A stretch of 64,000 bases of DNA, from the NCBI GenBank assembly GCA_045805065.1, contig JBJMMA010000259.1, positions 2,874-66,873 on the forward strand, given 5' to 3'. Below the pieces are notes generated by a model, which ran no database searches, was not told where the DNA came from, and saw nothing but the letters and a program-made list of their open reading frames with translations. Every line of letters starts with the position of its first letter. Position 1 is the first letter of the stretch. The position numbers and the translations under genes were made by a program. Source of the stretch: Bdellovibrionia bacterium. GTDB taxonomy: Bacteria > Bdellovibrionota > UBA1018. Positions 15,279 to 55,061 of the stretch are shown here, piece by piece.

Positions 15279-15638
15279 TTATCGTAATTCCTGACCACAG
15301 CGTATGCAATGCAAAACTCGCTTGCTTGCCCGACGACGTCGGTAAACCAAAACGATTCCGAGAACAAATTGCACGACGCACCATGACCAAATCCAAGCTC
15401 GATGCGCCTGAATTTTATCTGAGTAAATCAAAAACAGAACAAAGCTGAGCCCGAACAGAATCTGCGTCACTACCGGGTAGGGATACGCAGGACGTGAAAC
15501 AAGCTCTCCTCCTTTGTCTTCACCATATTTGGCAAGACAAGAAGGACAAGGATCGCCTTCGGCATATCTACCGGTCAGTTTAGAACGTGCGGACAAGGTC
15601 ATGCACGCGTACCACGCCTTTCCAACATCCGTTCTCAT
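15279..15638 (-). CDS. Hypothetical zinc-ribbon membrane protein
   Basis: Two CxxC pairs (CPSC and CIRC) flank two hydrophobic helices. Overlaps the 3' end of the kpsF-like gene by 23-59 nt depending on start. Weak call. Confidence 0.3.
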   Translation of the reverse strand: MRTDVGKAWYACMTLSARSKLTGRYAEGDPCPSCLAKYGEDKGGELVSRPAYPYPVVTQILFGLSFVLFLIYSDKIQAHRAWIWSWCVVQFVLGIVLVYRRRRASKRVLHCIRCGQELR

Positions 15639-16599: not shown

Positions 16600-16694
16600 A
16601 AAATGTTCATCGCATAAGTTAATGGAAACAAAAAGGTACTCCAGCAGGAATTGCACATTTTGACAGACTCCCTGACCCAAGCGACAATAGAAGC

Positions 16695-17261
16695 ATGAAG
16701 CAAGGTCAGGCTCTTCTGCGCGCTCTTTTATTGGTCGTTTTACCCTCCCTTGCCCTGCTCCCCCTGCTCTCAGGTTGCATGAGCGCTTACCGGAAAAGCG
16801 TCGGGGTGGACAATGTCGGACAAGTCTATAGCCGCCGCTATGTCACCGACCTGAATACCGCCTGGCAGGCCTGTCTTGAGGCCATGAAGTCCAACCCTCT
16901 CGACGTGAAAAACACCCAATCGGGCTATATTCAGACCAAATGGGTCGATAACACCGAGCAGAGAAACTTTGTCGACTCGTTTGGCGACGCAAACGCGACG
17001 CTCAAGGCCCAGTTTCGCTTCAAGGTGAATGTGGCCAGCACCTTCTATAATGGCGAGCCTGTTGTCAAAATCACCGTCACCAAGGATCAGATGGTCCAAT
17101 ATGACGTCCTGGAAGGCTGGCGCTATGTGGAGACGGACTCGATCGATGAGAACACCCTTCTTTACCGCATCGGCAGGCTCATCTATTTTCGCATGAAGAT
17201 CGCAAAGCTTGAGGAAGAGCGAATCAATCGCGAGACCAAGAACATGGATCTTTCGAAGTAA
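16695..17261 (+). CDS. Hypothetical lipoprotein
   Basis: Signal peptide with lipobox 'LLSGC'. No recognisable catalytic motif. Confidence 0.5.
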   Translation: MKQGQALLRALLLVVLPSLALLPLLSGCMSAYRKSVGVDNVGQVYSRRYVTDLNTAWQACLEAMKSNPLDVKNTQSGYIQTKWVDNTEQRNFVDSFGDANATLKAQFRFKVNVASTFYNGEPVVKITVTKDQMVQYDVLEGWRYVETDSIDENTLLYRIGRLIYFRMKIAKLEEERINRETKNMDLSK

Positions 17262-17373
17262 TGGCAAAGTAATGGCAAAGTAGGCATTCTTTGCCCAATG
17301 CCCTGTTTTTCCCGCGTTTCGCTTCAATTTCTCTTCATTACTTCTTCAATCTATATGCGATAATAATTGAAGT

Positions 17374-19131
17374 ATGAGTTCGATTTCTACCACGGACGGC
17401 GGATATCAGTACTACCAACGCAAGCTCAGCGATCTCGAGTCGGAGATGCGCGACGAGGCCAAGCGCTCTCGCGAACATTACGACGAGCGTGCCGACGCGC
17501 TTGAAAAGAAGTCGACGCAGAACGTGCGTGACTACGAAAAGAAATCTGATGAAGCCGTGAATGATGTTCGTGAGAACTCCTCTGCTCAGATGGACAAGGA
17601 GCGCGAGGCCGCACGTGCGGATGTCGAGCGCGCAAGAGCCGCAACCTACGACAAGTACGGTCGCTCGCAATCTGAGATCGCTTTCCACAAAAAGCGCGCT
17701 GACGACGCGATTCAACAGATGCAAGAGCAGATGGACTCACAAAAGCCGAAGTTTGATCGCGCGATCGAAAGCGCCTCGGCCAAGACCACTCTGGGCGCTG
17801 CTGAACGCCTGAGAAAAAACGCCGACCAGGAACACGAAAGCCGCACTCGCGAGACCACGGAGCTTCGGCAATCGATCGATAGCCTGCTTGAAAACGAAAG
17901 AGCCTACGGCAAGGAAAAAGGCCAGGGCTCGGTCGACGCTCGCCGTGAGATTGAGAACGAATCCCGCACTCGCGAGTTCGTCATGCGCAACCAGTACGAG
18001 AACGACCTTCAGCAGCAACAGCACAAGAGCGTTCAGACTGAGCACGACCTGATTCAATCGCATCAGCAGGACATGCACGATCGCGACACTCAATTCGCCA
18101 AAGACCTCCACCGCATGACTCAGCAGCATCAGGACGACATGCGCACCCTCTCTGAGAGCACCGAGCACGTCGTCAATCAGGTGCGTGACATGGCTCGCCA
18201 ACAGGCCGTTCACGCGCAAGAATCCATGGATCGCCAAGCTACCAGCATGCAGCGTGACAACCAGGAATCCCTCACCCGCCAGGCTGAGACTTTCCGACAC
18301 GAAAAACAGCTTCAGCGCGAGGAAGATCAGAGCACGATTCACCACCTGGAGAGCGAGATCAAAGGACACATCACCTCAGGTGATCCATCCTGGGTCGCCC
18401 CGGCAGCCGAAGCCAGAATGCGTGACAACTTCATGAAGGAGTTCACCAAGAAACAAGACGCCGAGATCACTCGCAACAAAGAGAAGACCGATAGCCTCCA
18501 CAAGGAATATTCAAAGCGCCTGGCCGATGTCGTCGAAGCATCAGATACGCGCATCATGACCGCAGAAGCCGATCACCGCTCCAGCGAGTATCTTCAACAG
18601 CAGACTTTGATGAACCATGTCGATGAAATCAAATCCACGCAGGAGCGAATGCTTCGTGACAAGGACTATCAAGCAAACCGCCAGATGGAGTCCCTGAATC
18701 ACAACTACAGCAATGACTTGGAGCGGCAGCGTCGCGAGTATGAAGGCGTCATCAACCAGCTGAAGTCCGACTACAGCCAAAAGATGACCGACGTGCGTCA
18801 ACAAGCCGACTTTAACGCAAAATTAGCGCAGCGCAACTTTGCGTCCCAGCAGTATGAAATCTCCAAGTCTTACGAGCGCAAGCTCGAGGAACAAAAGACT
18901 TCTTACGAAGATGCCCTCTCCAACCTCAAGGAACAGCTTGCAACGCATCAACATGAGGCCGAGCGCCGTACCCGCCAGCTATTAGATGACCAAGCCAAGG
19001 GCTATGAGCAAAAAATCGCTCAAATGGAGTACCAAACTAAGGAGCGAGAGCGTACTATCAGTGACAACTACCAGGACCAAATTGAAAAGTTGAAACGATC
19101 GAATGCTCTCCTCATCCAACGGAAATCTTAG
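17374..19131 (+). CDS. Highly charged, entirely polar coiled-coil/disordered protein (585 aa)
   Basis: A 1.76-kb ORF with a protein-like E/R/D/Q/K-rich composition and no hydrophobic segment. No signal peptide. Confidence 0.6.
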   Translation: MSSISTTDGGYQYYQRKLSDLESEMRDEAKRSREHYDERADALEKKSTQNVRDYEKKSDEAVNDVRENSSAQMDKEREAARADVERARAATYDKYGRSQSEIAFHKKRADDAIQQMQEQMDSQKPKFDRAIESASAKTTLGAAERLRKNADQEHESRTRETTELRQSIDSLLENERAYGKEKGQGSVDARREIENESRTREFVMRNQYENDLQQQQHKSVQTEHDLIQSHQQDMHDRDTQFAKDLHRMTQQHQDDMRTLSESTEHVVNQVRDMARQQAVHAQESMDRQATSMQRDNQESLTRQAETFRHEKQLQREEDQSTIHHLESEIKGHITSGDPSWVAPAAEARMRDNFMKEFTKKQDAEITRNKEKTDSLHKEYSKRLADVVEASDTRIMTAEADHRSSEYLQQQTLMNHVDEIKSTQERMLRDKDYQANRQMESLNHNYSNDLERQRREYEGVINQLKSDYSQKMTDVRQQADFNAKLAQRNFASQQYEISKSYERKLEEQKTSYEDALSNLKEQLATHQHEAERRTRQLLDDQAKGYEQKIAQMEYQTKERERTISDNYQDQIEKLKRSNALLIQRKS

Positions 19132-20587
19132 AAAAGTAAAAATCGTCTGTACCCTGGGCCCCTCCACTTCCACACTGGAGCAGATCAGCCAGCTGATCGA
19201 ATCCGGAATGGACGTAGCGCGCTTGAACTTCAGCCACGGCACTCACGAGTTTCACCGCGGCCTGATTCAAAACATTCGCGAAGCCTCTCGCCGCCACGGA
19301 AAGCCAGTGGCGATCATGCAAGATCTTCAAGGCCCGAAACTCCGCGCCGGCGTTCTTCCCAAAGCTGGAATCGAGCTCAAGGCGGGAGATGTCCTTCTTC
19401 TCCATCCAGAAGGATCAACGCCGAAGACTTCCACTCAAGGAAAGATCGCGCTTCCGATCTCCGCCGAGATCGCAGCACCGATTTCCGCTGACGTTCAGCC
19501 TGGCAGCCGCATCCTCTTTGACGATGGAAAGATCGCCACTCGCGTCTCCTCCGTCAATCCCCCTGAGATTATCGTTGAAGTCGAAGTCGGAGGACGCCTC
19601 ACGAGCAATAAGGGAATGAATCTTCCCGGCACCCCTCTTTCTTTGCCATGTTTAACGGACAAGGACTTGGCTGACCTCACCTTTGGCTTGGCCGAAGGCG
19701 TCGATGCAGTCGCCCTCTCCTTTGTTCGCACCGTTCAAGACGTCGAGATCTTGAAAGACAAGATCCGCAAGCAATCCAATGAACATCCGATTGTCGTTTC
19801 CAAGATCGAGCGCGAAGAGGCGATCGAATCCATGGAAGCCATCATGGAAGTTTCTGATGCCCTCATGGTCGCACGCGGTGACTTGGCCGTGGAAATCGGG
19901 GCTGAACGCGTTCCAACGGTTCAAAAGCAACTCATTCACGGCTGCAACGAGCTGGGCGTGCCGATCATCACGGCAACCCAGATGCTTGAGTCCATGATCT
20001 CCTCCCCGACTCCTACGCGCGCAGAAGCCAGCGACGTCGCAAACGCCGTTTTTGACGGAACCGACGCCGTCATGCTCTCCGCCGAAACCGCATCAGGCCA
20101 GTATCCATTTGAGACGGTTCGCACGATGGCCAGAATCATCATCGATGCAGAACGCTCACGCGATAACTTCTCACGCCATCGTGACAATATGGCATTACCA
20201 GGCTCCGTAGTGGACGCCATCGAGCACAGCGCAGCAGGCATTGCCAAGCAAGTGGGCGCGGTTGCGATCGCTTGCCTCACCCACTCCGGAATGGCCGCAC
20301 GCACTCTCGCTAAATATCGCCCAACGACCCCAATCGTTGCGATCATGGACAATGAACCGAACCTTCGTAAGCTTGCCTTTGTCTGGGGCGTACGTGGTGC
20401 GATCATTCCAAAGATTGTCTCAACCGACGATCTTTTTGCGATGGTCGAAAAAGTGCTTCAAACGAATGGCTGGGCTGAGGCCGAGGACCTGGTTGTGGTT
20501 ACCGCGGGCATTCCTACCCTTCGTCGCGGCACAACCAATATGGTGAAAGTGCATCGTATTGGCGCAAACGCTGACCGCGCCCGGTAA
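19103..20587 (+). CDS. pyk: Pyruvate kinase
   Basis: 'KIVCTLGPST' N-terminus, 'MVARGDLAVEIG' and 'TQMLESM' PK motifs. 494 aa. Confidence 0.9.
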   Translation: MLSSSNGNLRKVKIVCTLGPSTSTLEQISQLIESGMDVARLNFSHGTHEFHRGLIQNIREASRRHGKPVAIMQDLQGPKLRAGVLPKAGIELKAGDVLLLHPEGSTPKTSTQGKIALPISAEIAAPISADVQPGSRILFDDGKIATRVSSVNPPEIIVEVEVGGRLTSNKGMNLPGTPLSLPCLTDKDLADLTFGLAEGVDAVALSFVRTVQDVEILKDKIRKQSNEHPIVVSKIEREEAIESMEAIMEVSDALMVARGDLAVEIGAERVPTVQKQLIHGCNELGVPIITATQMLESMISSPTPTRAEASDVANAVFDGTDAVMLSAETASGQYPFETVRTMARIIIDAERSRDNFSRHRDNMALPGSVVDAIEHSAAGIAKQVGAVAIACLTHSGMAARTLAKYRPTTPIVAIMDNEPNLRKLAFVWGVRGAIIPKIVSTDDLFAMVEKVLQTNGWAEAEDLVVVTAGIPTLRRGTTNMVKVHRIGANADRAR

Positions 20588-20614: not shown

Positions 20615-21838
20615 TTAATTTACAAGCGAAGGATACTGAGCGCGAATCCGCTGAATTCGGAGCTCCAGGCGTCGCGCTTCCTCGCGCACGTCCGCTCTTT
20701 GGTCATAGCTTCGCGAAGTCTTCAGTTGCTGCAGAAGAGTCTCGCAGTAGCTCAGCTCAAGCTGGATCATCTGAGCGAACTTTTCAATTCCGGTGGAATA
20801 ATAAGCCAGCTTGTTGCCCTTGCCCGCGATGCTTTCTTCCAGGGCACTGCGGTTCACCAGCTCGCCCGTTTGCAAATTGAAAATTCTGTAGTTTTCACGT
20901 GATGACTGCGTATGGAAAGGCTCGTAAGGAAGATTGTAGCGATTGCGATACCGGATGACAGCCGAGATCTCAGCTGCGAATGCATCCACCTCTCCGCCTT
21001 GTCTTTCCATATTCCAAAGGCTGTAGTCGTTTGCGTCCTTGAAAATCAGAAGTTCATTGAGATTTTCTGACTTCATCCGGCGCAATGAGCCCAGAACGTG
21101 CGTCAACTCGTGAATGATCGTTGCATACAAGTCGATCATCTCGGACTTGGGATTGAGGCTGACGACAACACTGAGCCGTACACCCGGATTCGGATCTGGA
21201 ATGAACATGCCTTCGGGATCCAAAGCTGGCCAGCCCGCGAGAACGGACCGAGGGCTCGCGCGATCCGTGATGATCATGGAAACACCGTTTTCAAACGCAT
21301 TGCGCGGATTAATAAAGGTCACAAGCTCGCGAAGACTGGATTTCCCGGTCTCGCTCAATACTGCCGTAATCAGAGCATTGGCTTGCTCATCATCGGCAAG
21401 AGCGTCTTCAATTCTGGCAAAAGACTCAGGATCGCTCACATCAAATCTCTCATGTGACTTGAAGATCGCAGGAGGATAGCCTGCTCTTCTGGCAAATACG
21501 ATCGAACTGCGCTGCTCAGGTTGCGCCTGAGTCTCGGATGGAACCACGGATGGCGTTACGGACGCCACTGCTGCTGGCTGAGCGGACTCTTGTCCTGACA
21601 GAACCATCTCCTGCACAGCAAGCGCTTGATTCAGGTTTCCCGCTTCTCGGGATGGCTCAACGTTCCGGGCGCGAAACAACGAAGAGAGCGCTCCTCGAAA
21701 CGAGGAGAAAAAGCCTCCGCTTTCCGAGGAATTCATCGCATACGCGGGAACCGATCCCATTTGGATCAAAAGAACCAGACCAGTTACCGACTTTGAACGG
21801 AGCCAAGATGTTTTCACTGCCACAAGAACAACCTCCAC
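20615..21838 (-). CDS. Secreted protein with an HExxH zinc-metallopeptidase-like motif
   Basis: Hydrophobic N-terminus. 'IIHELTHVLG' HExxH motif. No wider family recognised. Confidence 0.45.
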   Translation of the reverse strand: MEVVLVAVKTSWLRSKSVTGLVLLIQMGSVPAYAMNSSESGGFFSSFRGALSSLFRARNVEPSREAGNLNQALAVQEMVLSGQESAQPAAVASVTPSVVPSETQAQPEQRSSIVFARRAGYPPAIFKSHERFDVSDPESFARIEDALADDEQANALITAVLSETGKSSLRELVTFINPRNAFENGVSMIITDRASPRSVLAGWPALDPEGMFIPDPNPGVRLSVVVSLNPKSEMIDLYATIIHELTHVLGSLRRMKSENLNELLIFKDANDYSLWNMERQGGEVDAFAAEISAVIRYRNRYNLPYEPFHTQSSRENYRIFNLQTGELVNRSALEESIAGKGNKLAYYSTGIEKFAQMIQLELSYCETLLQQLKTSRSYDQRADVREEARRLELRIQRIRAQYPSLVN

Positions 21839-30625: not shown

Positions 30626-32566
30626 TTGCAATCACAGGGGGCACGTATGAGATTTCATTCTTTTTTGATGGCTGTAGCACTTTTAGGCGCACAGACCGCG
30701 TTTGGGGACGTCTGCAGCAAAGTATCCGAGAACCAGGTCGCACAATTGACCTGTCCTGCGGGTCAAACTATTACGAACATTGGTTTTGCGAGTTACGGGA
30801 CCCCCTCCGGCGCATGCGGCAGCTATAGTGTCAGCAGTTGCAACTCCAGCACCTCCAAGAGCGTCGTGCAATCGGCGTGTGTAGGCAAAGCGTCTTGCCA
30901 AGTCAGTGCTTCGAATTCCTTGTTTGGCGATCCTTGCAGTGGCATCACGAAATCTCTTGCCATTCAAGCCGTATGTTCGGCTCCTTCAACCTCAAACGCC
31001 TGCACGAGTGTGGCCGAAAGTCAGTCCGCGGCACTCACTTGTCCATCAGGAAAGGTCATTTCAAGCATTACCTTTGCGAGTTACGGGACCCCAACTGGCT
31101 CGTGCGGCAGCTTTGCAGTGAGCAGCTGTAACGCAAGCACCTCGAAGAGCGTTGTGCAATCGGCATGTGTAGGCAAAGCATCCTGCCAACTCAGCGCTTC
31201 AAATTCCTTGTTTGGCGACCCTTGCAGTGGCGTAGGCAAAAGGCTTTCTGTCCAGGCAGTTTGTTCTTCAGTGGTTCCAAAACCAAGCCCTAGTCCAAGT
31301 CCGACTGTGACTCCAAAGCCTACTCCGACGCCTACTCCATCGCCTACGCCGACTGCGACTCCGCTTCCAGCCGTGGGCTCAAATGTCGTCGTACCTAGCG
31401 CGATCGCTATCCCAGCCTCGACGCTTGCCTTGCCAAGTGGCATCGCCAACGGATCATCTGCTTCAAGCCCAACCGTTGTCAGTCTGCAATGCGGACAAGT
31501 TTATCGGGGAACGCTTGATCTCAGCTACAAATCCTACATCTCCGTGAAAGTCGCAGGTACCTGTGGCAAGCCGACCATCATTCCTGCATCCAATTCACAA
31601 GTCGGGATTAATGCTGTTGGCGCAAACACCATCAAGATCAGCGGCATCAAAATCCAGGGCGCATCTCAAGGGATCAACGTGAACAATGCGAAAACCATCA
31701 GCATTGATAACGTGGATATCTTGAACAGCTCCAACGCCGGGATTTTTTGCAGCGGTGTGAATGGCATGACTGTTTCGAACAGCAGTATCAGTAACAGCGG
31801 CGTCACGGGTGTCGACAGCCTGGGCGCGGTCAGCAACGCGACGATCACTAACACGACGGTTTATAATACCAGCAAAGGTAGCGGCGGCGCAGGTGGCGTC
31901 GGCATCTACTTCTATAACGGTACTAACAACCGGATCGATCACGTATCTGTCAGCAACTCTGCTTATCACGGAATTGTCTCTCTTGAGACAACCAATTCCT
32001 ATGTGACGAACAGCATAGCTCAAAATAGCTGCACAGGTCCTGATAAGGATTGTGGCGCAATCTACACGGCACAGAAAGCCACGCCACATGCCGGTCTTAA
32101 TCTGATCATCGACAACAACAAAGTGGTCACCAGTGGAGGCAGCGGCATCTACCTCGATGACTATGCCAATGGCGTGACCGTCTCATACAACGACGTCTCC
32201 GGATGTTCAGACGGGATGATATTGCACAATGGATACAACAACAATATCCATCACAATAAGATCGCCAACAGCGCGGTTGCTCACGTCACCATGGGCCAGG
32301 ACACTGGAACCATGCACGACAACGTGTTCACGTATAACGCGATGAACTCCACTCATGGCGAATACGGTTACCGACTTGAAACCGGAACCAACCTGAGCAC
32401 CTTTGCCCGGTATGACAACAACACCTACCAGAGCACCAATGTGAGCCACTTTGGCCGCCTCTGGCAGGGTGGCTCGAGCCCTGGCATCGACGCCAGCTAC
32501 AGCGCCTGGAAATCAACCTACATGCCAGGTCAGGATGCTCACTCAACGATGAACGGTGCCCAATAA
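30626..32566 (+). CDS. Secreted protein with two tandem SUEL-type (galactoside/rhamnose-binding) lectin domains, a Pro/Thr/Ser linker and a right-handed parallel beta-helix domain
   Basis: Signal peptide. A ~115-aa repeat occurs twice with 'ASYGTP.G.CGS..VSSCN.S.SKSVVQSACVGKASCQ.SASNSLFGDPCSG', matching the SUEL/Gal_Lectin cysteine pattern. Linker 'PKPSPSPSPTVTPKPTPTPTPSPTPTATP'. C-terminal 'NSS/NSG/NTT' repeat rungs are typical of pectin-lyase-fold beta-helices. Confidence 0.75.
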   Translation: MQSQGARMRFHSFLMAVALLGAQTAFGDVCSKVSENQVAQLTCPAGQTITNIGFASYGTPSGACGSYSVSSCNSSTSKSVVQSACVGKASCQVSASNSLFGDPCSGITKSLAIQAVCSAPSTSNACTSVAESQSAALTCPSGKVISSITFASYGTPTGSCGSFAVSSCNASTSKSVVQSACVGKASCQLSASNSLFGDPCSGVGKRLSVQAVCSSVVPKPSPSPSPTVTPKPTPTPTPSPTPTATPLPAVGSNVVVPSAIAIPASTLALPSGIANGSSASSPTVVSLQCGQVYRGTLDLSYKSYISVKVAGTCGKPTIIPASNSQVGINAVGANTIKISGIKIQGASQGINVNNAKTISIDNVDILNSSNAGIFCSGVNGMTVSNSSISNSGVTGVDSLGAVSNATITNTTVYNTSKGSGGAGGVGIYFYNGTNNRIDHVSVSNSAYHGIVSLETTNSYVTNSIAQNSCTGPDKDCGAIYTAQKATPHAGLNLIIDNNKVVTSGGSGIYLDDYANGVTVSYNDVSGCSDGMILHNGYNNNIHHNKIANSAVAHVTMGQDTGTMHDNVFTYNAMNSTHGEYGYRLETGTNLSTFARYDNNTYQSTNVSHFGRLWQGGSSPGIDASYSAWKSTYMPGQDAHSTMNGAQ

Positions 32567-35084: not shown

Positions 35085-36692
35085 ATGACCGAAAAAGAAA
35101 ACAACCATCTCGACTCGGAACAAAACTCTCAAGACATGAGCGCTCCAGAAGATGCGCCCCAACATTCTGAAAAGAAGCAGAACGACGACGGCGTCTCTTA
35201 CGTCTCTTTGATTTCTGACCCCTATGGCTTCACCAACAATGAAGTTTCGGAAGCTCAAGACAGCTCCGAGCCATTGAACCTCGATGAGCCCCAAGATGAG
35301 TTCGAAGATGATTTTGAAGACGACGAAGACACCGGCATGAATATGTCCGAGTCTGCATCCGAAGACGATGAAACCGAAGTTTCCGCCATCAGCATGGCCG
35401 ATCTTCGTGCCCAGGCCCAAGCAGAAACAGCAGCTCAGTCTGAGTCTGATTCCGCCATTGAATCGTTTGAAGTCGACACGGAAGAGTTCGTTGCCGCTGA
35501 AGACAACGGCGCTCTCGATCGCCTCGCCGGCGCAATCACTGAGCAAACTGAAAAAGACCGCATCGAAGCTGAAGAGCTTGTCGCAAAAGCCGCAGAAGCT
35601 TTGGCTGATTGGACTCCAGATGCAGACGCAAAAGCTGCCATGGAATCCGCCAATCAACTCGCGTCTCAAATTGCTGAAGACCAAGCCCTTCAAGCAGAGC
35701 TTGCCAAGGAAGCTGAAGAAGCCGAACAAATCGACCCAGCTCTGGCTGCTGCTCTCCCCCAACGTGGCGAAGACGGAAGCCTGGATCTGAACGAACTTCA
35801 ATCCGCCATCGAAGCCATCCTCTTCATGGTCGATAAGCCAATTTCCATGGCTCGTATCCACGAGATGCTCGGCCCGGATTTTGAGCTCAATCTCTTCCAA
35901 GAAGCGATGTCAGCTCTCATGGATCGCTATCAATCCACCGCTCATGGCGTGGAAATCGTCCAAGTCGCCAACGGCTATCAGTTCCGCACCAAGGCGGGCC
36001 GCGCAGCACTTGTGAAGAAGCTTGCCAAAGTTCAAACGCAACGCCTCTCCAGCGGCGCGATGGAATCGCTTGCGATCATCGCTTATCGTCAGCCTGTTCT
36101 GAAGGACGATATCGACAAGATCCGCGGCGTGGACTCCTCTTACTTCATTCGTCAGCTTCTGGATAAGAAGCTCATTCACATCTCGGGTCGTTCGGAACTC
36201 GTGGGTCGCCCACTCCTCTATTCAACCACGGATGAATTCCTCTCGCTCTTTAACCTCAAAGATCTTTCGGCAATGCCATCGCTCCGCGAGATTGAGCAGA
36301 TGATTCCTGCGTCTCAGTCCCAAAACCCAGAGGATGAAGATCCTCGCGTGAAGGAAATGCGCAAGCTCGTTGGCCAGATGAAGTCTGATACCAGCGTCTC
36401 GCTCATTTACGACGCTCGCGAAGACGAGAAGATTCTCAAGGACATCAAGGAGCGCGTTGGCTCGATCGCAACGACGACACCTTATCTTGAGCAGCAGAAG
36501 GAAATCGAAAAGCAGACTGCAGAAGCTGCTAAGCATGGCATGACCCTCGAAGAATGGGGTGCCGCTCAAGCTGCTGCCGCTGCCGCGAAGGAAGCTGAAA
36601 AGGCCGCTGCAAAAGCTGGATCTGAAGAAGCTCCTGAAATGCTTCCAGAAGCAGCTCCTTCCGAGACCCCAGCTGAAGTTCCTCACCACTAA
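35085..36692 (+). CDS. scpB: Segregation and condensation protein B with long acidic N- and C-terminal extensions
   Basis: ScpB core 'LQSAIEAILFMVDKPIS ... ESLAIIAYRQPVLKDDIDKIRGVDSSYFIRQLLDKKLI' begins near residue 237. The preceding ~236 aa are D/E/S-rich low complexity. Confidence 0.8.
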   Translation: MTEKENNHLDSEQNSQDMSAPEDAPQHSEKKQNDDGVSYVSLISDPYGFTNNEVSEAQDSSEPLNLDEPQDEFEDDFEDDEDTGMNMSESASEDDETEVSAISMADLRAQAQAETAAQSESDSAIESFEVDTEEFVAAEDNGALDRLAGAITEQTEKDRIEAEELVAKAAEALADWTPDADAKAAMESANQLASQIAEDQALQAELAKEAEEAEQIDPALAAALPQRGEDGSLDLNELQSAIEAILFMVDKPISMARIHEMLGPDFELNLFQEAMSALMDRYQSTAHGVEIVQVANGYQFRTKAGRAALVKKLAKVQTQRLSSGAMESLAIIAYRQPVLKDDIDKIRGVDSSYFIRQLLDKKLIHISGRSELVGRPLLYSTTDEFLSLFNLKDLSAMPSLREIEQMIPASQSQNPEDEDPRVKEMRKLVGQMKSDTSVSLIYDAREDEKILKDIKERVGSIATTTPYLEQQKEIEKQTAEAAKHGMTLEEWGAAQAAAAAAKEAEKAAAKAGSEEAPEMLPEAAPSETPAEVPHH

Positions 36693-46756: not shown

Positions 46757-48130
46757 TTAATTCATTGGCGGAGGATTCGACAAGAACTCAGTCATTGTCG
46801 CACCTTGATCCTTGTTCGGCACGATTAAGGTGGCCGTACGCCAGTTCGGCGTCGCCAGGAGATAACGACCGTTACCTAAGCCCGGCGCATAACCCAGACT
46901 CCACCCCGTGGTAGGGGTAGGATAATAATCAGCCCCTGTGTCGATCACGTACTTGGCGACGCTGCGATCATCTGGCTTGGACGAATCAGCAACGACAAGC
47001 CTCGTATCCACAGCCACGAAAACCGCTCTTACGTCCGCAGGATTTGGAATCCCTTTGCCCCCGCTCGAGGAGGAGCTGCCGTAGCCGTGCTCGAAGTAAG
47101 GATAGGCAGGGCGAAAGGAAACGCCACCGTCGGATTCTACTTTTCGGTCAGGCGTGCCCGCGCTGGCGAATGGGTACTTCCACAGGCCAGTGTCCGGAGC
47201 CGTGACTTGGTTCCATTGCGACCACTTGCGCGTCGAATTGGAGAGAATGTAAACTCTAAGATTTTTGATTTCTACACGCGTGTTGGTCGCGGCGTTTCCT
47301 TGAGCCTCGTACAGCGTGTACCATGCGAGCAATCCGCTACACCAGGTAGGACGCTCCCCCGTCCACCAAGATGGGATTGAGCTTCCGGCTGGTGAGTACT
47401 GCGTGATCACAGGATTGTACTGCCAGTCGAACGAAGGATTGATCACCAGCGCCTCGCTTGGAGACGACATGTCTTTCACCACTTGGTCGATTGTCAGCCC
47501 AGTTGAGGAAGTCGACGAAGGCGTTGGACTTGGCTTTACAGTCGGTGTCGGACTTGGACTTGGCTTCGGAGTCACAGTTGGACTCGGGCTCGGAATTGGC
47601 GCGGCTCCACTTGCAAAGCTCCATTTCTGATTGGCACCGGCGCCGCAATCATAGAGAATCACCGGCGTTCCATTTGCGGAATTATTTGCGGCGACATCCA
47701 TGCAGCGTCCACTCGATGCACTCACAAGCCTTCCGTTCGAGAGTGACCATTTTTGAGTTACTGAATTGTTGCAGGTCTTGGAGACGATGGGATTCAAGTT
47801 GGCGCCAGTGCCCTTGATGTCCAGGCAAAGATTGCCAGCACCAGCAAAGCTCTTCAGCTGTCCTGAGGAGTTCAGAACGAAAGACTGATTGCTTCCGCCG
47901 TTACAACTCCAGATCTCAAGCGCCGCGCCAGAAGCAGTGCTGTTAGCAGTGACATCTAAGCATATATTGGTTCCAAGGCTGCTCTTCACTGCCCCTGATG
48001 CTACGGTCGTGACTGCCGCAGCTTTGGCTGGATGGGCGGAGGCGATCAATGCAAGAGCAAGTCCTCCCGACCAGGGCGCAACTCGCTTTAAAAATGCTCT
48101 ACTCTTAATCGCTCTACAGGTTTTCATTTC
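46757..48130 (-). CDS. Secreted ricin-B (beta-trefoil) lectin domain protein with a Pro/Thr/Ser linker and an unknown C-terminal domain
   Basis: Signal peptide from the internal Met 48130. QxW repeats 'NQSFVL', 'TQKWSL', 'NQKWSF' lie around 'CLD' motifs. Linker 'PSPSPTVTPKPSPSPTPTVKPSPTPSS'. The ORF extends to 48178. Confidence 0.7.
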   Translation of the reverse strand, partial: EMKTCRAIKSRAFLKRVAPWSGGLALALIASAHPAKAAAVTTVASGAVKSSLGTNICLDVTANSTASGAALEIWSCNGGSNQSFVLNSSGQLKSFAGAGNLCLDIKGTGANLNPIVSKTCNNSVTQKWSLSNGRLVSASSGRCMDVAANNSANGTPVILYDCGAGANQKWSFASGAAPIPSPSPTVTPKPSPSPTPTVKPSPTPSSTSSTGLTIDQVVKDMSSPSEALVINPSFDWQYNPVITQYSPAGSSIPSWWTGERPTWCSGLLAWYTLYEAQGNAATNTRVEIKNLRVYILSNSTRKWSQWNQVTAPDTGLWKYPFASAGTPDRKVESDGGVSFRPAYPYFEHGYGSSSSSGGKGIPNPADVRAVFVAVDTRLVVADSSKPDDRSVAKYVIDTGADYYPTPTTGWSLGYAPGLGNGRYLLATPNWRTATLIVPNKDQGATMTEFLSNPPPMN

Positions 48131-48440
48131 ATTCCCCCGACAGGAACTGTCTATTCCGTTCCTTATTATCGCACCCAAGCTACAGTAATATCAGCTGTGT
48201 CTCTATCGACCAGTCTCGAAGACGCATAAATTCGCTGAACTTTCGCGAATTAAAGTCAATCTGTATACGCACATAGGCAATGAAATGTTTTGCATCAAAT
48301 CGAGCACCCTCTCCTTGCTCAATAGACGTTGTATAACCGATATCGGACCCCAATCTGACGAGGCCTCGGTGCCTTGCTGGGCCGCTCGCCCCCTTTTCAT
48401 CGCATGATTACCCCCTTGCATCGTGTGGTAGAATAGACGC

Positions 48441-51784: not shown

Positions 51785-53041
51785 ATGGCGCCATCCGTAA
51801 AGCAGGACGAAAAACTCCACTCTCACATAGAAGATCTCCGCGGGACAAGCCGACTTGCCATTGAAGCAACTCAAGGCGTTTGTGATCTTATTGAAGCCAT
51901 GCATGAGACGGTCGCTAAGGGGCCCTACTTGTTAGGAAATCCACTTCAACGCCCAACGCGTACGATCAATCAAATGGTTTACGGAAGCATCCGTTGCGTA
52001 ACAAACCTTGTAGGAGCAAGTATCGATGGTGTCCTCGGAAGACTCACACGGCTTATCGGTCCGGGTCATAGAGTCTCCCGCTCCTCTCAGGAAGATGCCG
52101 TACTTGCAGTGCTCAATGGAGTCCTGGGCGACTATCTGCAGGAGACCGGTAATCCTCTAGCCATCCCGATGCAGCTACGGCACACCGGCGCTCCTCTTGT
52201 GCTCGAGCCAAAGGCGTTGCATGCGGCATTACCGAAGGCAGGCCCCAAACTCCTCCTTTTGGTCCATGGCTCGTGCCTGAGTGACCGACAATGGTCTCGA
52301 CAAGGGCATGATCACGGGGCGGAGCTCGCGCGCGACTTGGGATACACGCCGATATATCTGCACTACAACACCGGCCTCCACATTTCGACTAACGGTCGCA
52401 CGCTCGCCACACTCCTTGATCAGCTTGTCACAGCGTGGCCTGTGCCCCTGGAAGAAATCGCCATTTTATCCCACAGCATGGGAGGGCTCGTGGCTCGTAG
52501 CGCTTGTCACATTGCAGAGGAGCAAAACTATCTCTGGCGAAGGAAGTTACGCGTGGCGATCTTTCTTGGGACACCTCACCAGGGAGCACCGCTTGAGCGT
52601 GTGGGCAACTGGATCGACCATCTCTTAGTCATCAACCGTTACAGTGCCCCTTTCGCGCGGCTTGGTAAAATCCGCAGCGCCGGCGTAACTGACATGCGCC
52701 ATGGCAACGTGTTGGACGAACACTGGCAAGGCCGCGACCGCTTTGCTCATGGCCGCGACACCCGTACACCTTTGCCACTACCAACGAATATTTCCTGCTA
52801 CACGATCGCCGCAACAAAGGGCCCCAAAGGAACGGGAAAGCTACGAAGCGACGGCATTGTCCCCGTGAACAGCGCACTTGGCATGCATAAGTTGGCAAAG
52901 CATAGCCTTGTCTTCCCAGAAACACACCAATGGATCGCCTACGGAACAAGCCATCTCGATCTGCTCAACCGCCACGAAGTCTATACAACGGTCCGGAAAT
53001 GGCTCGAAGCACCCAAGCCAGCAAGCCTACCCAGTGGATGA
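51785..53041 (+). CDS. Alpha/beta hydrolase, lipase-like (PGAP1/EstA-like)
   Basis: 'LLLLVHGS' and nucleophile elbow 'ILSHSMGGLVAR'. Confidence 0.55.
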   Translation: MAPSVKQDEKLHSHIEDLRGTSRLAIEATQGVCDLIEAMHETVAKGPYLLGNPLQRPTRTINQMVYGSIRCVTNLVGASIDGVLGRLTRLIGPGHRVSRSSQEDAVLAVLNGVLGDYLQETGNPLAIPMQLRHTGAPLVLEPKALHAALPKAGPKLLLLVHGSCLSDRQWSRQGHDHGAELARDLGYTPIYLHYNTGLHISTNGRTLATLLDQLVTAWPVPLEEIAILSHSMGGLVARSACHIAEEQNYLWRRKLRVAIFLGTPHQGAPLERVGNWIDHLLVINRYSAPFARLGKIRSAGVTDMRHGNVLDEHWQGRDRFAHGRDTRTPLPLPTNISCYTIAATKGPKGTGKLRSDGIVPVNSALGMHKLAKHSLVFPETHQWIAYGTSHLDLLNRHEVYTTVRKWLEAPKPASLPSG

Positions 53042-53858: not shown

Positions 53859-55061
53859 TTGAACGTCATGAATGGGCGCGCTTTAATGGATTGGTCCAAA
53901 GTTTTAGTTTTTTCATCGCTACTTTTGTCAAACAACGCTCTGTCTGGAGAATGCTTTCGCCAAGTGCCAACCTTCGGTTTTAGCAATTTCAATGATCTTG
54001 CCAATAGCATCGGCGATGCAAAAAGTGAGTTGACCTCCTTTCTACCGGACAAAAAGCTGAGCCGTGATCAGATCGACAGGTTGGCCGCCGAAGCTTCTGA
54101 CGTTGTATACAACCTGTTCAAAACTGCGGGTGACAACCCCGCCAATTCATCACGTATTTTTCCAAACGACGCGATCGTGCCAGTGGATCATTTTACTTCA
54201 GCAGCTGCGCTTGTGGGTGCTCCCATGGGTTATCGAATCGCCGCGAGCTGGAACGATAATGCTCAAAACGAAGCCAAGCGAGGCGTTTTTACCGCGCTTT
54301 ATGAGCCCAATACTTATGGTCAGCCAGTGATATTCGCCTTTAAAGGAACAGTGACACGTGACGATTGGAAAGAAGACCTCTTCCATCAAGGCGGAACTCA
54401 GCTGCAATCGGTTTTTCGAATGCTGAGCCCACGCAATTCGGCCGGCGCGACCGTCTACAAAAGTCTGCTAAAACGCCTGGAGAGTGGGCAAGACGTTTTG
54501 ATCACTGGACATAGTCTGGGCGGTGGCCTTGCTCAAGCCACTGCTTACTTGTTGCAAAAAGATCTCGACGACTATCGCCGTCACGAAATCGCCCAAGGAA
54601 GAGAGCCAAAACCGGGTAATCTTCATCTTGTGACTTTTAACGCACTCGGTGGTCAGCGGACGCTGAAGGTATTTGCTAAGGCCTTCCCTAAAGATCGAGA
54701 GATCACCCCGATCCTCTATAAGGGTACCCGCCTCGAATCCAGTCCAATCGACTCTCAAATCGACGACGCGGCAGTGCTCTCTCTTCAGCCGCGTAACTAT
54801 GCTTATCCAGGCGATCCAGTATCTCCACTTTTCGATCACATTGGTCCAAAATTGATCGTCTCGAAAAAGGAGCCAAAGCGAAAAGTAACGGGCATTGCCG
54901 AAGCATCCGCCCACATGTATACCGCGCTCGGTCGGTTAAGACTTGCAGGAGGGTTTGCGCCAAGCGTTCTGAACTCAATTCACGACAAAGTCTCAGAAGC
55001 CGTCTACGACCATAGCATCAAGCTCATTCGCACGGCGATCGACTCTGATTTCAGACCTTAA
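53859..55061 (+). CDS. Secreted class 3 lipase family protein
   Basis: Signal peptide. 'LITGHSLGGGLAQA' matches the Lipase_3 nucleophile motif GHSLGG. Confidence 0.75.
   Translation: MNVMNGRALMDWSKVLVFSSLLLSNNALSGECFRQVPTFGFSNFNDLANSIGDAKSELTSFLPDKKLSRDQIDRLAAEASDVVYNLFKTAGDNPANSSRIFPNDAIVPVDHFTSAAALVGAPMGYRIAASWNDNAQNEAKRGVFTALYEPNTYGQPVIFAFKGTVTRDDWKEDLFHQGGTQLQSVFRMLSPRNSAGATVYKSLLKRLESGQDVLITGHSLGGGLAQATAYLLQKDLDDYRRHEIAQGREPKPGNLHLVTFNALGGQRTLKVFAKAFPKDREITPILYKGTRLESSPIDSQIDDAAVLSLQPRNYAYPGDPVSPLFDHIGPKLIVSKKEPKRKVTGIAEASAHMYTALGRLRLAGGFAPSVLNSIHDKVSEAVYDHSIKLIRTAIDSDFRP

Follow-up and report, generated by a model that had tools for sequence, protein, structure and literature searches.

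A hendecad-periodic, predicted helical protein family encoded in overlap with pyruvate kinase in uncultured Bdellovibrionota

In the window analysed here, a stretch of 64,000 nucleotides (nt) from contig JBJMMA010000259.1 of a Bdellovibrionia bacterium (assembly GCA_045805065.1), the open reading frame (ORF) at 17374..19131 of the forward strand runs from ATG to TAG and encodes a highly charged, predicted all-helical protein of 585 amino acids (aa), referred to below as protein X. The hallmark of X is the placement of its hydrophobic residues on an 11/3 (hendecad) repeat, which continues through predicted helices of 227 and 241 unbroken residues; a pure hendecad over such lengths is a rare repeat type in nature. 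X matches no known family, occurs in two discrete lengths, carries conserved motifs at its ends and between its helices, and its gene overlaps the downstream pyruvate kinase gene, pyk. With a confidence that stays a little short of even, X is read as a segmented hendecad coiled-coil rod that acts as a structural or scaffold element. The initial annotation of the window had pointed to this ORF and missed its main feature, a hendecad rather than a heptad periodicity.

Hendecad seam and predicted architecture

Protein X is dominated by E (11.3%), Q (10.8%), R (9.7%), S and D (8.4% each), A (8.2%) and K (7.2%), which agrees well with the initial listing of E, R, D, Q, K, S and T as prevailing residues; the RTRE motif, listed there as recurring, is present twice (aa 157-160 and aa 198-201). 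With 115 acidic and 99 basic residues, the charged fraction is 37% and the net charge -16, and the grand average of hydropathy (GRAVY) is -1.47. As anticipated, neither a transmembrane segment nor a signal peptide was found in a Kyte-Doolittle scan with 19-residue windows, the top mean being -0.05. The description as “entirely polar”, however, does not hold: A, L, I, V, M, F, W and Y make up 29% of the residues and are placed with strict periodicity. The protein lacks Cys, and its very low contents of Pro (0.5%) and Gly (1.9%) argue for helix rather than disorder.

The spectrum of the hydrophobic positions has a single dominant peak at a period of 3.65 residues with a power of 6.2 (200 shuffles: mean 1.3, maximum 2.5), and this peak is common to all family members tested. 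Among the 45 long ORFs of the window, X reaches a normalised power of 30.3, compared with 4.5 +/- 1.5 and a maximum of 8.9 for the other 44. The autocorrelation of X has peaks at lags of 22, 66, 33, 77, 44, 55, 11, 99 and 88, together with a secondary series at 11n+7; a lag-51 peak, the mark of the CC51 repeat of Scy and FilP, was sought in it and not found. In the family profile, the period of the predicted helices is 3.67-3.68 each, i.e. 11/3. In an alignment of 110 sequences, the median best periods of the helices all fall at 3.66-3.68 with very tight interquartile ranges (IQRs), and the heptad power (0.4-0.9) is at noise level.

In the hendecad register, positions a, d and h are hydrophobic in 54-81% of the members, whereas the remaining eight are so in 7-35%; in helix 3, the last helix, position h is rich in Tyr. 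The a/d/h seam occupies ~65 degrees of the helix surface, and a widening of the seam, as a sign of a three-helix bundle, was looked for in every segment of X and seen in none. Opposite-charge pairs are enriched at i,i+3 (z 3.2) and i,i+4 (z 3.9), and both the hydrophobic moment and the hydrophobic fraction of the helices lie at 0.25-0.31. Self-BLAST of X gave no off-diagonal match and hence no tandem 11-, 22- or 33-mer sequence repeats; self-matches found by hhalign are phase artefacts at offsets of whole 11/3 turns, except for a match between helix 1 and the insert described below.

Structure prediction with AlphaFold2 (AF2) yields long helices with breaks at conserved motifs and an amphipathic seam throughout. 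From 16 sequences, helices are predicted at 10-94, 100-183, 187-329 and 343-584, with a predicted local distance difference test score (pLDDT) of 75 and a predicted template-modelling score (pTM) of 0.18; from 110 sequences, the helices span 10-91, 101-327 and 344-584 (pLDDT 78.6, up to ~90 within the long helices; pTM 0.22). The deeper model joins the segments 100-183 and 187-329 of the shallow one into a single helix, in line with a shared hendecad register, since the register offset is 3 on both sides of the KEKGQG motif located there.

The segments of X, all on the forward strand, are as follows. The N-terminal head (aa 1-14; 17374..17415) has the consensus MSS[IV]S..DGGYxYY in alignments A1 and A2; its residues 1-9 are predicted to be non-helical (AF2 pLDDT <50 for 1-9/1-11), and its mean top-residue frequency is 0.60, compared with 0.32-0.44 for the helix bodies, the C-terminal third of helix 3 excepted. 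Helix 1 (aa 10-91, 82 aa; 17401..17646) comprises ~7.5 hendecads in a/d/h register with a period of 3.68 and is followed by linker 1 (aa 92-100; 17647..17673), an AF2 helix break that contains the near-invariant YDKYGR, of which Y92, G96 and R97 are invariant in alignment A1. Helix 2 (aa 101-327; 17674..18354) keeps to one hendecad register throughout its 227 residues, with a period of 3.66-3.67 in 101-110 sequences, and includes the conserved KEKGQG motif (aa 179-184; 17908-17925), which is a break in the shallow AF2 model and helical in the deeper one. Linker 3 (aa 328-343; 18355..18402; pLDDT <50) is characterised by TS.D...[IV]SPAAE, a motif running on to E346; S335, D337, P343, A344, A345 and E346 are invariant or nearly so in alignment A1. 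Helix 3 (aa 344-584; 18403..19125) then holds a single register over 241 residues or ~22 consecutive hendecads (median best period 3.67, IQR 3.67-3.67 in 110 sequences). The most conserved part of the protein is aa 546-585 (19009..19131; ..KERERTISDNYQDQIEKLKRSNALLIQRKS), with a top-residue frequency of 0.64, and the tail, ..KERERTISDNYQDQIEKLKRSNALLIQ[RK]KS, is very conserved. The initial alternative of “coiled-coil or disordered” is thereby narrowed: coiled coil is favoured by the seam and by the AF2 helices (pLDDT ~80-90), whereas disorder is at odds with the indel-free register and the conserved seam.

The length of the protein is quantised. The 134 full-length members are sharply bimodal, with modes at 585 aa (16 sequences) and 681/682 aa (38 sequences), and among 34 short-form sequences residues ~154-585 are practically indel-free down to ~22% identity. 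Short and long forms differ at a single site, after aa 99, by one module of ~95-96 residues, which is hendecad-periodic as well (period 3.68). The best match of this module is to helix 1, shifted by 25 turns (92 residues; score 0.24, next ~0; z 4.5), and in sequence it looks like a tandem duplicate of it. On a rough neighbour-joining tree, short and long forms occur intermixed, which requires at least 13 changes, the long form being the root state; tentatively, given that trees are unreliable at ~27% identity, exactly one module would have been gained or lost repeatedly.

Family, selection and the pyk overlap

Gene X is a real gene under purifying selection. In comparison with a 93% identical relative from a metagenome (L021), 144 synonymous versus 47 non-synonymous differences were counted (dN 0.034, dS 0.58, dN/dS = 0.059). 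While a word-indexed search returned 18 relatives of the protein, an exhaustive HMMER scan of 1.84 billion representatives produced 231 homologue clusters at E<=1e-3, 195 of them at E<=1e-10. A spurious or non-functional ORF, arising merely from biased composition, has in its favour solely the missing annotation (“hypothetical protein”); it is refuted by the substitution pattern and by the 231 clusters, in which length, start and stop are kept, as is synteny, and its probability is practically nil. The initial expectation that so long an ORF is likely expressed is in keeping with the same figures, which speak for a genuine expressed-type gene.

By exact-sequence look-up, X corresponds to NCBI MFL5815875.1, “MAG: hypothetical protein [Bdellovibrionia bacterium]” (MAG, metagenome-assembled genome), and its named relatives are each annotated “hypothetical protein”. 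No match was obtained for X in Pfam and NCBIfam at E<=1, no match in PADLOC and no meaningful one in PHROG; the PDB, searched by sequence and by profile, yielded no relative, and 16 family members gave only stray matches in Pfam at E<=10. When one genome per GTDB species was scanned, 16 of 16 loci recovered were found to belong to MAGs labelled Bacteriovoracaceae, Oligoflexia, Bdellovibrionales or Bdellovibrionia; the same scan had 0 hits in cultured isolates, being pattern-based so that diverged copies may escape it. A profile search of a 5.8-billion-sequence database added no further named or cultured relative. Judged by its sequences, the family is a new, strongly conserved and previously unannotated one of uncultured Bdellovibrio-type bacteria. 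A restriction to predatory bacteria, as suggested initially, is correct in so far as the labelled loci are all Bdellovibrionota MAGs; the attribute “predatory” is an assumption, all of them being uncultured. Over the same genome pairs, X is 25-34% and pyk 65-78% identical, i.e. X diverges much faster. One cluster of the family, P0018, comprises loci L002-L004 from assemblies GCA_013582305.1, GCA_013562115.1 and GCA_013565615.1, which have >500,000 contigs each judging from accession numbering and resemble eukaryotic genome projects; this suggests that Bdellovibrionota contaminate these samples or are associated with them.

The downstream partner pyk (19103..20587, forward strand) encodes a pyruvate kinase of 494 aa with the Pfam domains PK and PK_C. 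Its 5' end overlaps the 3' end of gene X by 29 nt (19103..19131, forward strand), which confirms the initial placement of X between a lipoprotein gene and pyk with its stop overlapping the pyk start. The pyk ATG is formed from the codons xAT/Gxx (N576-A577), a pair that encodes [N/H/Y][A/E] nine residues before the C-terminus of X. Nearly all loci with pyk downstream, the window included, have an overlap of 29 nt; in L011 it is 26 nt and in L020 35 nt. An in-frame pyk start was sought downstream of the X stop, and there is none; the PK barrel domain begins at pyk residue 10, so that the overlap encodes only a short 9-residue leader. No adjacency other than that of X and pyk is invariant; it holds in 20 of 21 loci, the contig of L004 ending 55 nt beyond X, while a block of lipoprotein, KpsF-like and DsbA-like genes and mutS are often nearby but rearranged or inverted among loci. 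The sole locus with downstream sequence in which pyk does not follow X is L019 (MEQJ01000076.1, 3007-5061), which has neither a pyk match nor the motif; the C-terminus of its X deviates (..MLHKKGNRA), which may result from the lifted overlap constraint.

In the last ~40 codons of X, codon identity at conserved residues is 0.89-0.95, versus 0.43-0.77 elsewhere (comparison with the 73% identical L005), and all lineages have a purine-rich Shine-Dalgarno (SD)-like tract upstream of the pyk ATG. The pyk initiation region embedded there accounts for part of the conservation at the C-terminus of X. Because the overlap is conserved and the synonymous sites are constrained, pyk is probably translationally coupled to X. 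The synonymous constraint (19009-19131) extends ~90 nt upstream of the pyk ATG, beyond the need of a ribosome-binding site; an RNA structure or an internal regulatory element for pyk may reside within this interval. A programmed frameshift giving an X-PK fusion (pyk lies in the +1 frame) was set aside, as pyk has its own ATG and SD-like tract; no slippery motif conserved across lineages was noticed in the overlap sequences, which were viewed without a formal test. A consensus scan places a terminator-like hairpin with T-run after the lipoprotein gene (17283..17312, forward strand; hairpin 17283-17302) and none between X and pyk, suggesting that X and pyk form a transcription unit of their own, without that gene.

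The upstream lipoprotein gene (16695-17261) encodes 188 aa with a lipobox and a sub-threshold NlpB/BamC-like match. An exact 11-nt tandem duplication (TAATGGCAAAG x2; 17259-17280) begins at its stop codon and ends just before the hairpin. The best sigma-70-like promoter match of the region, TTGACA-17-GACAAT (10/12; 16660-16695), ends 7 nt before the lipoprotein ATG, which would imply a leaderless or near-leaderless mRNA or another true start codon. The 3' end of the KpsF-like gene is overlapped by a small reverse-strand ORF of 119 aa (15279-15638), which has CxxC-type motifs and two stretches predicted to be hydrophobic; this ORF recurs at 36-44% identity beside that gene in many distant loci and, on this pattern, is probably a real unannotated gene. 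Between pyk and mutS lies a 407-aa ORF without Pfam match (20615-21838, reverse strand), present only in the closest relatives, L021 and L022; in distant genomes mutS follows pyk directly, so that the ORF has the look of a recent insertion. Overall, the window has the character of a housekeeping region, with infB, hflX, mutS, a mutY-like and a xerC/D-like gene, scpB, a class-I tRNA synthetase and sensor kinases. Its ScpB homologue (35085-36692, forward strand) is unusually long (535 aa), the ScpB domain occupying residues 241-399 and leaving unassigned flanks of ~240 N-terminal and ~135 C-terminal residues. Two lectin-domain proteins (30626-32566, forward strand, SUEL-lectin with right-handed beta-helix; 46757-48178, reverse strand, ricin-B lectin) and two lipase/PGAP1-like hydrolases (51785-53041 and 53859-55061) could, going by their domains, be secreted factors that target prey or surfaces.

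A proposed hendecad rod and its rivals

According to the favoured reading, X would be a cytoplasmic, nearly all alpha-helical rod built of a short head and helices of ~82, 227 and 241 residues joined by two short linkers, with a single narrow stripe of hydrophobic residues along each helix, at positions a, d and h of the 11/3 repeat. Because of this period, the seam runs nearly parallel to the helix axis, and two X helices may pair into a two-stranded, nearly untwisted, slightly right-handed coiled coil; “almost parallel helices” have been described where the peripheral stalk of rotary ATPases is hendecad-based (PMC3293630). Two arrangements are conceivable: a parallel in-register homodimer would reach ~80 nm, taking ~0.148 nm for each of the 82+227+241 residues, and an antiparallel hairpin of the two near-equal long helices, closed by the SPAAE loop, would measure ~34-36 nm. 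In the hairpin, helix 1 of the short form would have its partner in trans, whereas in the 681-aa form it would pair in cis with its duplicate. The two were compared by mirror correlation of “holes” in the core, by mutual information with average product correction and by the charges flanking the seam, none of which favoured one over the other; the mutual information (110 sequences) is dominated by differences between the short and long classes, and its i+j peak equals the expectation from pair-count geometry. Head, linkers and tail may be contact sites for end-to-end assembly or partner docking, and X could be a fixed-length structural or scaffold element of the coiled-coil-rich protein (CCRP) kind known from bacteria. 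Its synthesis would be tied to that of pyruvate kinase, the pyk start codon and ribosome-binding region being contained in the last 29-50 nt of X.

The narrow seam, the salt bridges, the lack of indels and the discrete length classes would be expected of a rod in which register and length matter, and so would ends and linkers that are conserved and an architecture that is kept while the sequence drifts fast; intermediate-filament rods and bacterial CCRPs show this kind of behaviour. Among the three roles suggested initially, a cytoskeletal one fits best. Phase separation is not supported, given the 3-4 very long AF2 helices and the conservation of length, register and a/d/h seam; a nucleoid protein was rejected in view of the net charge of -16 and the failure to find a DNA-binding domain in Pfam and NCBIfam. 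A bolder version of the rod, which is a long shot, would make X a hitherto unrecognised “ruler” or part of the cytoskeleton in Bdellovibrionota: a two-stranded hendecad rod free of supercoiling, of two exact sizes one 25-turn module apart, assembling end to end via head and tail and obligatorily coupled to pyk because it positions or scaffolds pyruvate kinase or glycolytic flux at a defined site.

Several observations weigh against a rod. The seam is weak, L, I, V, M, F and W accounting for 17% of the residues and many a/d/h positions being polar. In helix 3, basic residues line both flanks of the seam and acidic ones follow further out; basic flanks on both sides are not ideal for in-register parallel homodimers. 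The AF2 models are of the monomer only, at the pTM values given above, and no conserved cytoskeleton-related gene neighbours X, whose only fixed partner is a metabolic enzyme. In addition, the hydrophobic moment of X is within the range of 11-mer helices on lipid surfaces (Plin4, alpha-synuclein), and two long-form members have sub-threshold matches to Phasin.

The last two points lead to the main rival, which is unlikely though clearly ahead of the others: X may be a surface-coating amphipathic helix of phasin, perilipin or apolipoprotein type. In the cytosol, the 11/3 helices would have a loose fold or none; on storage granules, lipid droplets or membranes with packing defects, they would lie flat as “3-11 helices”, with a, d and h facing the hydrophobic or neutral-lipid surface and length setting the avidity. 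Helices of apolipoproteins, alpha-synuclein and perilipins are typified by an 11-mer periodicity, and the charge pattern of helix 3 is partly class-A-like. The giant helix of Plin4 has no indels and is weakly hydrophobic (PMC5889406), as is X, whose moment is close to the 0.257 of Plin4 and the 0.30 of alpha-synuclein (Table 1 of PMC5889406). The hydrophobic face of X, however, comprises only 3 of 11 positions, its hydrophobic fraction is below that of every tabulated lipid-binding helix (0.32-0.72; Table 1 of PMC5889406), and its net charge is negative, in contrast to the net positive charge required for Plin4 targeting (PMC5889406). Pfam Phasin (PF05597) matches only 2 of 16 members, P0015 (22.8 bits, E 1e-4) and P0013 (16 bits), both under the gathering threshold of 28.8 bits, and neither the query nor the other 14. 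Moreover, X has no sequence-level 11-, 22- or 33-mer repeat; its conserved non-helical linkers and termini speak for a defined architecture; genes for polyhydroxyalkanoate or lipid storage were found neither among its neighbours nor elsewhere in the window, the part of the genome covered; and AF2 predicts the helices confidently with no surface at all.

A dedicated partner or regulator of pyruvate kinase is an improbable alternative, in which the rod would tether, space or sequester the enzyme and the overlap would fix the ratio of the two proteins from one mRNA. The invariance of the X-pyk adjacency amid rearranged neighbours, the overlap in nearly all lineages and the raised synonymous conservation across the junction favour it; yet an overlap speaks for co-expression rather than physical interaction, and the architecture of the kinase is ordinary (PK and PK_C with a mere 9-residue leader). 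This idea is compatible with the scaffold reading of X. Still further down ranks a stress protectant of LEA or hydrophilin type, which would be disordered when hydrated, form amphipathic helices on drying or freezing and shield membranes and proteins. The low GRAVY and the 37% charged residues of X would suit it, as would the periodicity shared with Group 3 LEA proteins, a group that is defined by 11-mer repeats and gains helix upon drying (PMC6975979). X, though, has no repeated 11-mer sequence motif, and no LEA family of Pfam was matched at E<=10 in 16 members. Length, register, linkers and termini are kept over ~110 diverged sequences, unlike in low-complexity protectants, and the operon with pyk in a housekeeping region looks constitutive. 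Hydrophilins, finally, are reportedly defined by >6% Gly (Garay-Arroyo et al. 2000), as against 1.9% in X. Taken together, this makes the protectant very improbable.

If the rod reading is correct, X would represent a new family of rod or scaffold proteins in bacteria, specific to this lineage and built on a rare repeat type. Long straight two-stranded coiled coils with almost no supercoil would be of interest to structural biologists and protein designers, and the two exact length classes would amount to a natural experiment on the importance of rod length. The 29-nt overlap would offer a clean case of translational coupling of a structural gene with a central metabolic enzyme. For genome annotation, ~230 “hypothetical protein” clusters could receive a structural description.

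Comparison with known systems

As far as analogy goes, X appears to resemble CCRP and intermediate filament (IF)-like rods in function and two-stranded hendecad coiled coils in structure. With the former (Streptomyces FilP and Scy, Caulobacter crescentin and Bdellovibrio Ccrp, the last from Fenton et al. 2010 as cited in PMC6985089), it shares long coiled-coil-type helices with short linkers, a cytoplasmic nature, conserved rod ends and fast sequence evolution under a retained architecture, as known for FilP, a bacterial coiled-coil-rich rod that keeps its architecture despite sequence drift (PMC6599971). The repeat of Scy is non-heptad, with 51 residues in 14 turns (PMC3718342); a repeat of this type was rejected for X, whose best period is 3.66-3.68. 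X differs from heptad- and CC51-based CCRPs by a pure 11/3 periodicity. It further differs from CCRP and IF-like proteins in having no sequence similarity to them and no Pfam Filament or DivIVA match, Bd2697 itself lying outside the direct comparison, and in its lengths quantised at 585/681 aa and its fixed place beside pyk.

X shares an 11/3 periodicity with a narrow core stripe with two-stranded hendecad coiled coils, the strand pairing in X being presumed. Hendecads and a narrow hydrophobic seam are also found in rotary-ATPase peripheral stalks (A/V-type E-G, F-type b dimer), which are hetero- or homodimers of ~100 residues on globular or membrane domains, their genes being part of ATPase operons; X exceeds them 5-6 times in length and has no globular domain, no ATPase neighbours and no sequence similarity to them. 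The “3-11” helices of perilipin 4, apolipoprotein A-I and alpha-synuclein resemble X in an indel-free 11-residue periodicity over hundreds of residues, in low hydrophobicity and in a hydrophobic moment of ~0.26-0.30; unlike these and the phasins, X has no tandem repeats, a narrower face (0.25-0.31 versus >=0.32), a net negative charge and conserved linkers and ends, and no apolipoprotein family matched it. From Group 3 LEA proteins and hydrophilins, it is set apart by the missing LEA_4 match, repeated 11-mer motif and high Gly content, and from ER/K single alpha-helix domains by its conserved a/d/h seam, even though i,i+4 salt-bridge pairs are enriched in X.

Lamins differ from cytoplasmic intermediate filaments by 42 extra residues in coil 1B. 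Similarly, rods of the X family come in two discrete lengths, set apart by a single in-phase block of coiled-coil type close to their N-terminal part (92-96 residues, ~25-26 turns); in contrast to the lamin/IF dimorphism, X is unrelated, has another repeat type, and its two lengths are interspersed on the rough tree. The class of long helical rods is thus a familiar one; what is unusual in X are the unbroken hendecads of 227 and 241 residues, the two exact length classes and the deeply conserved overlap with pyk.

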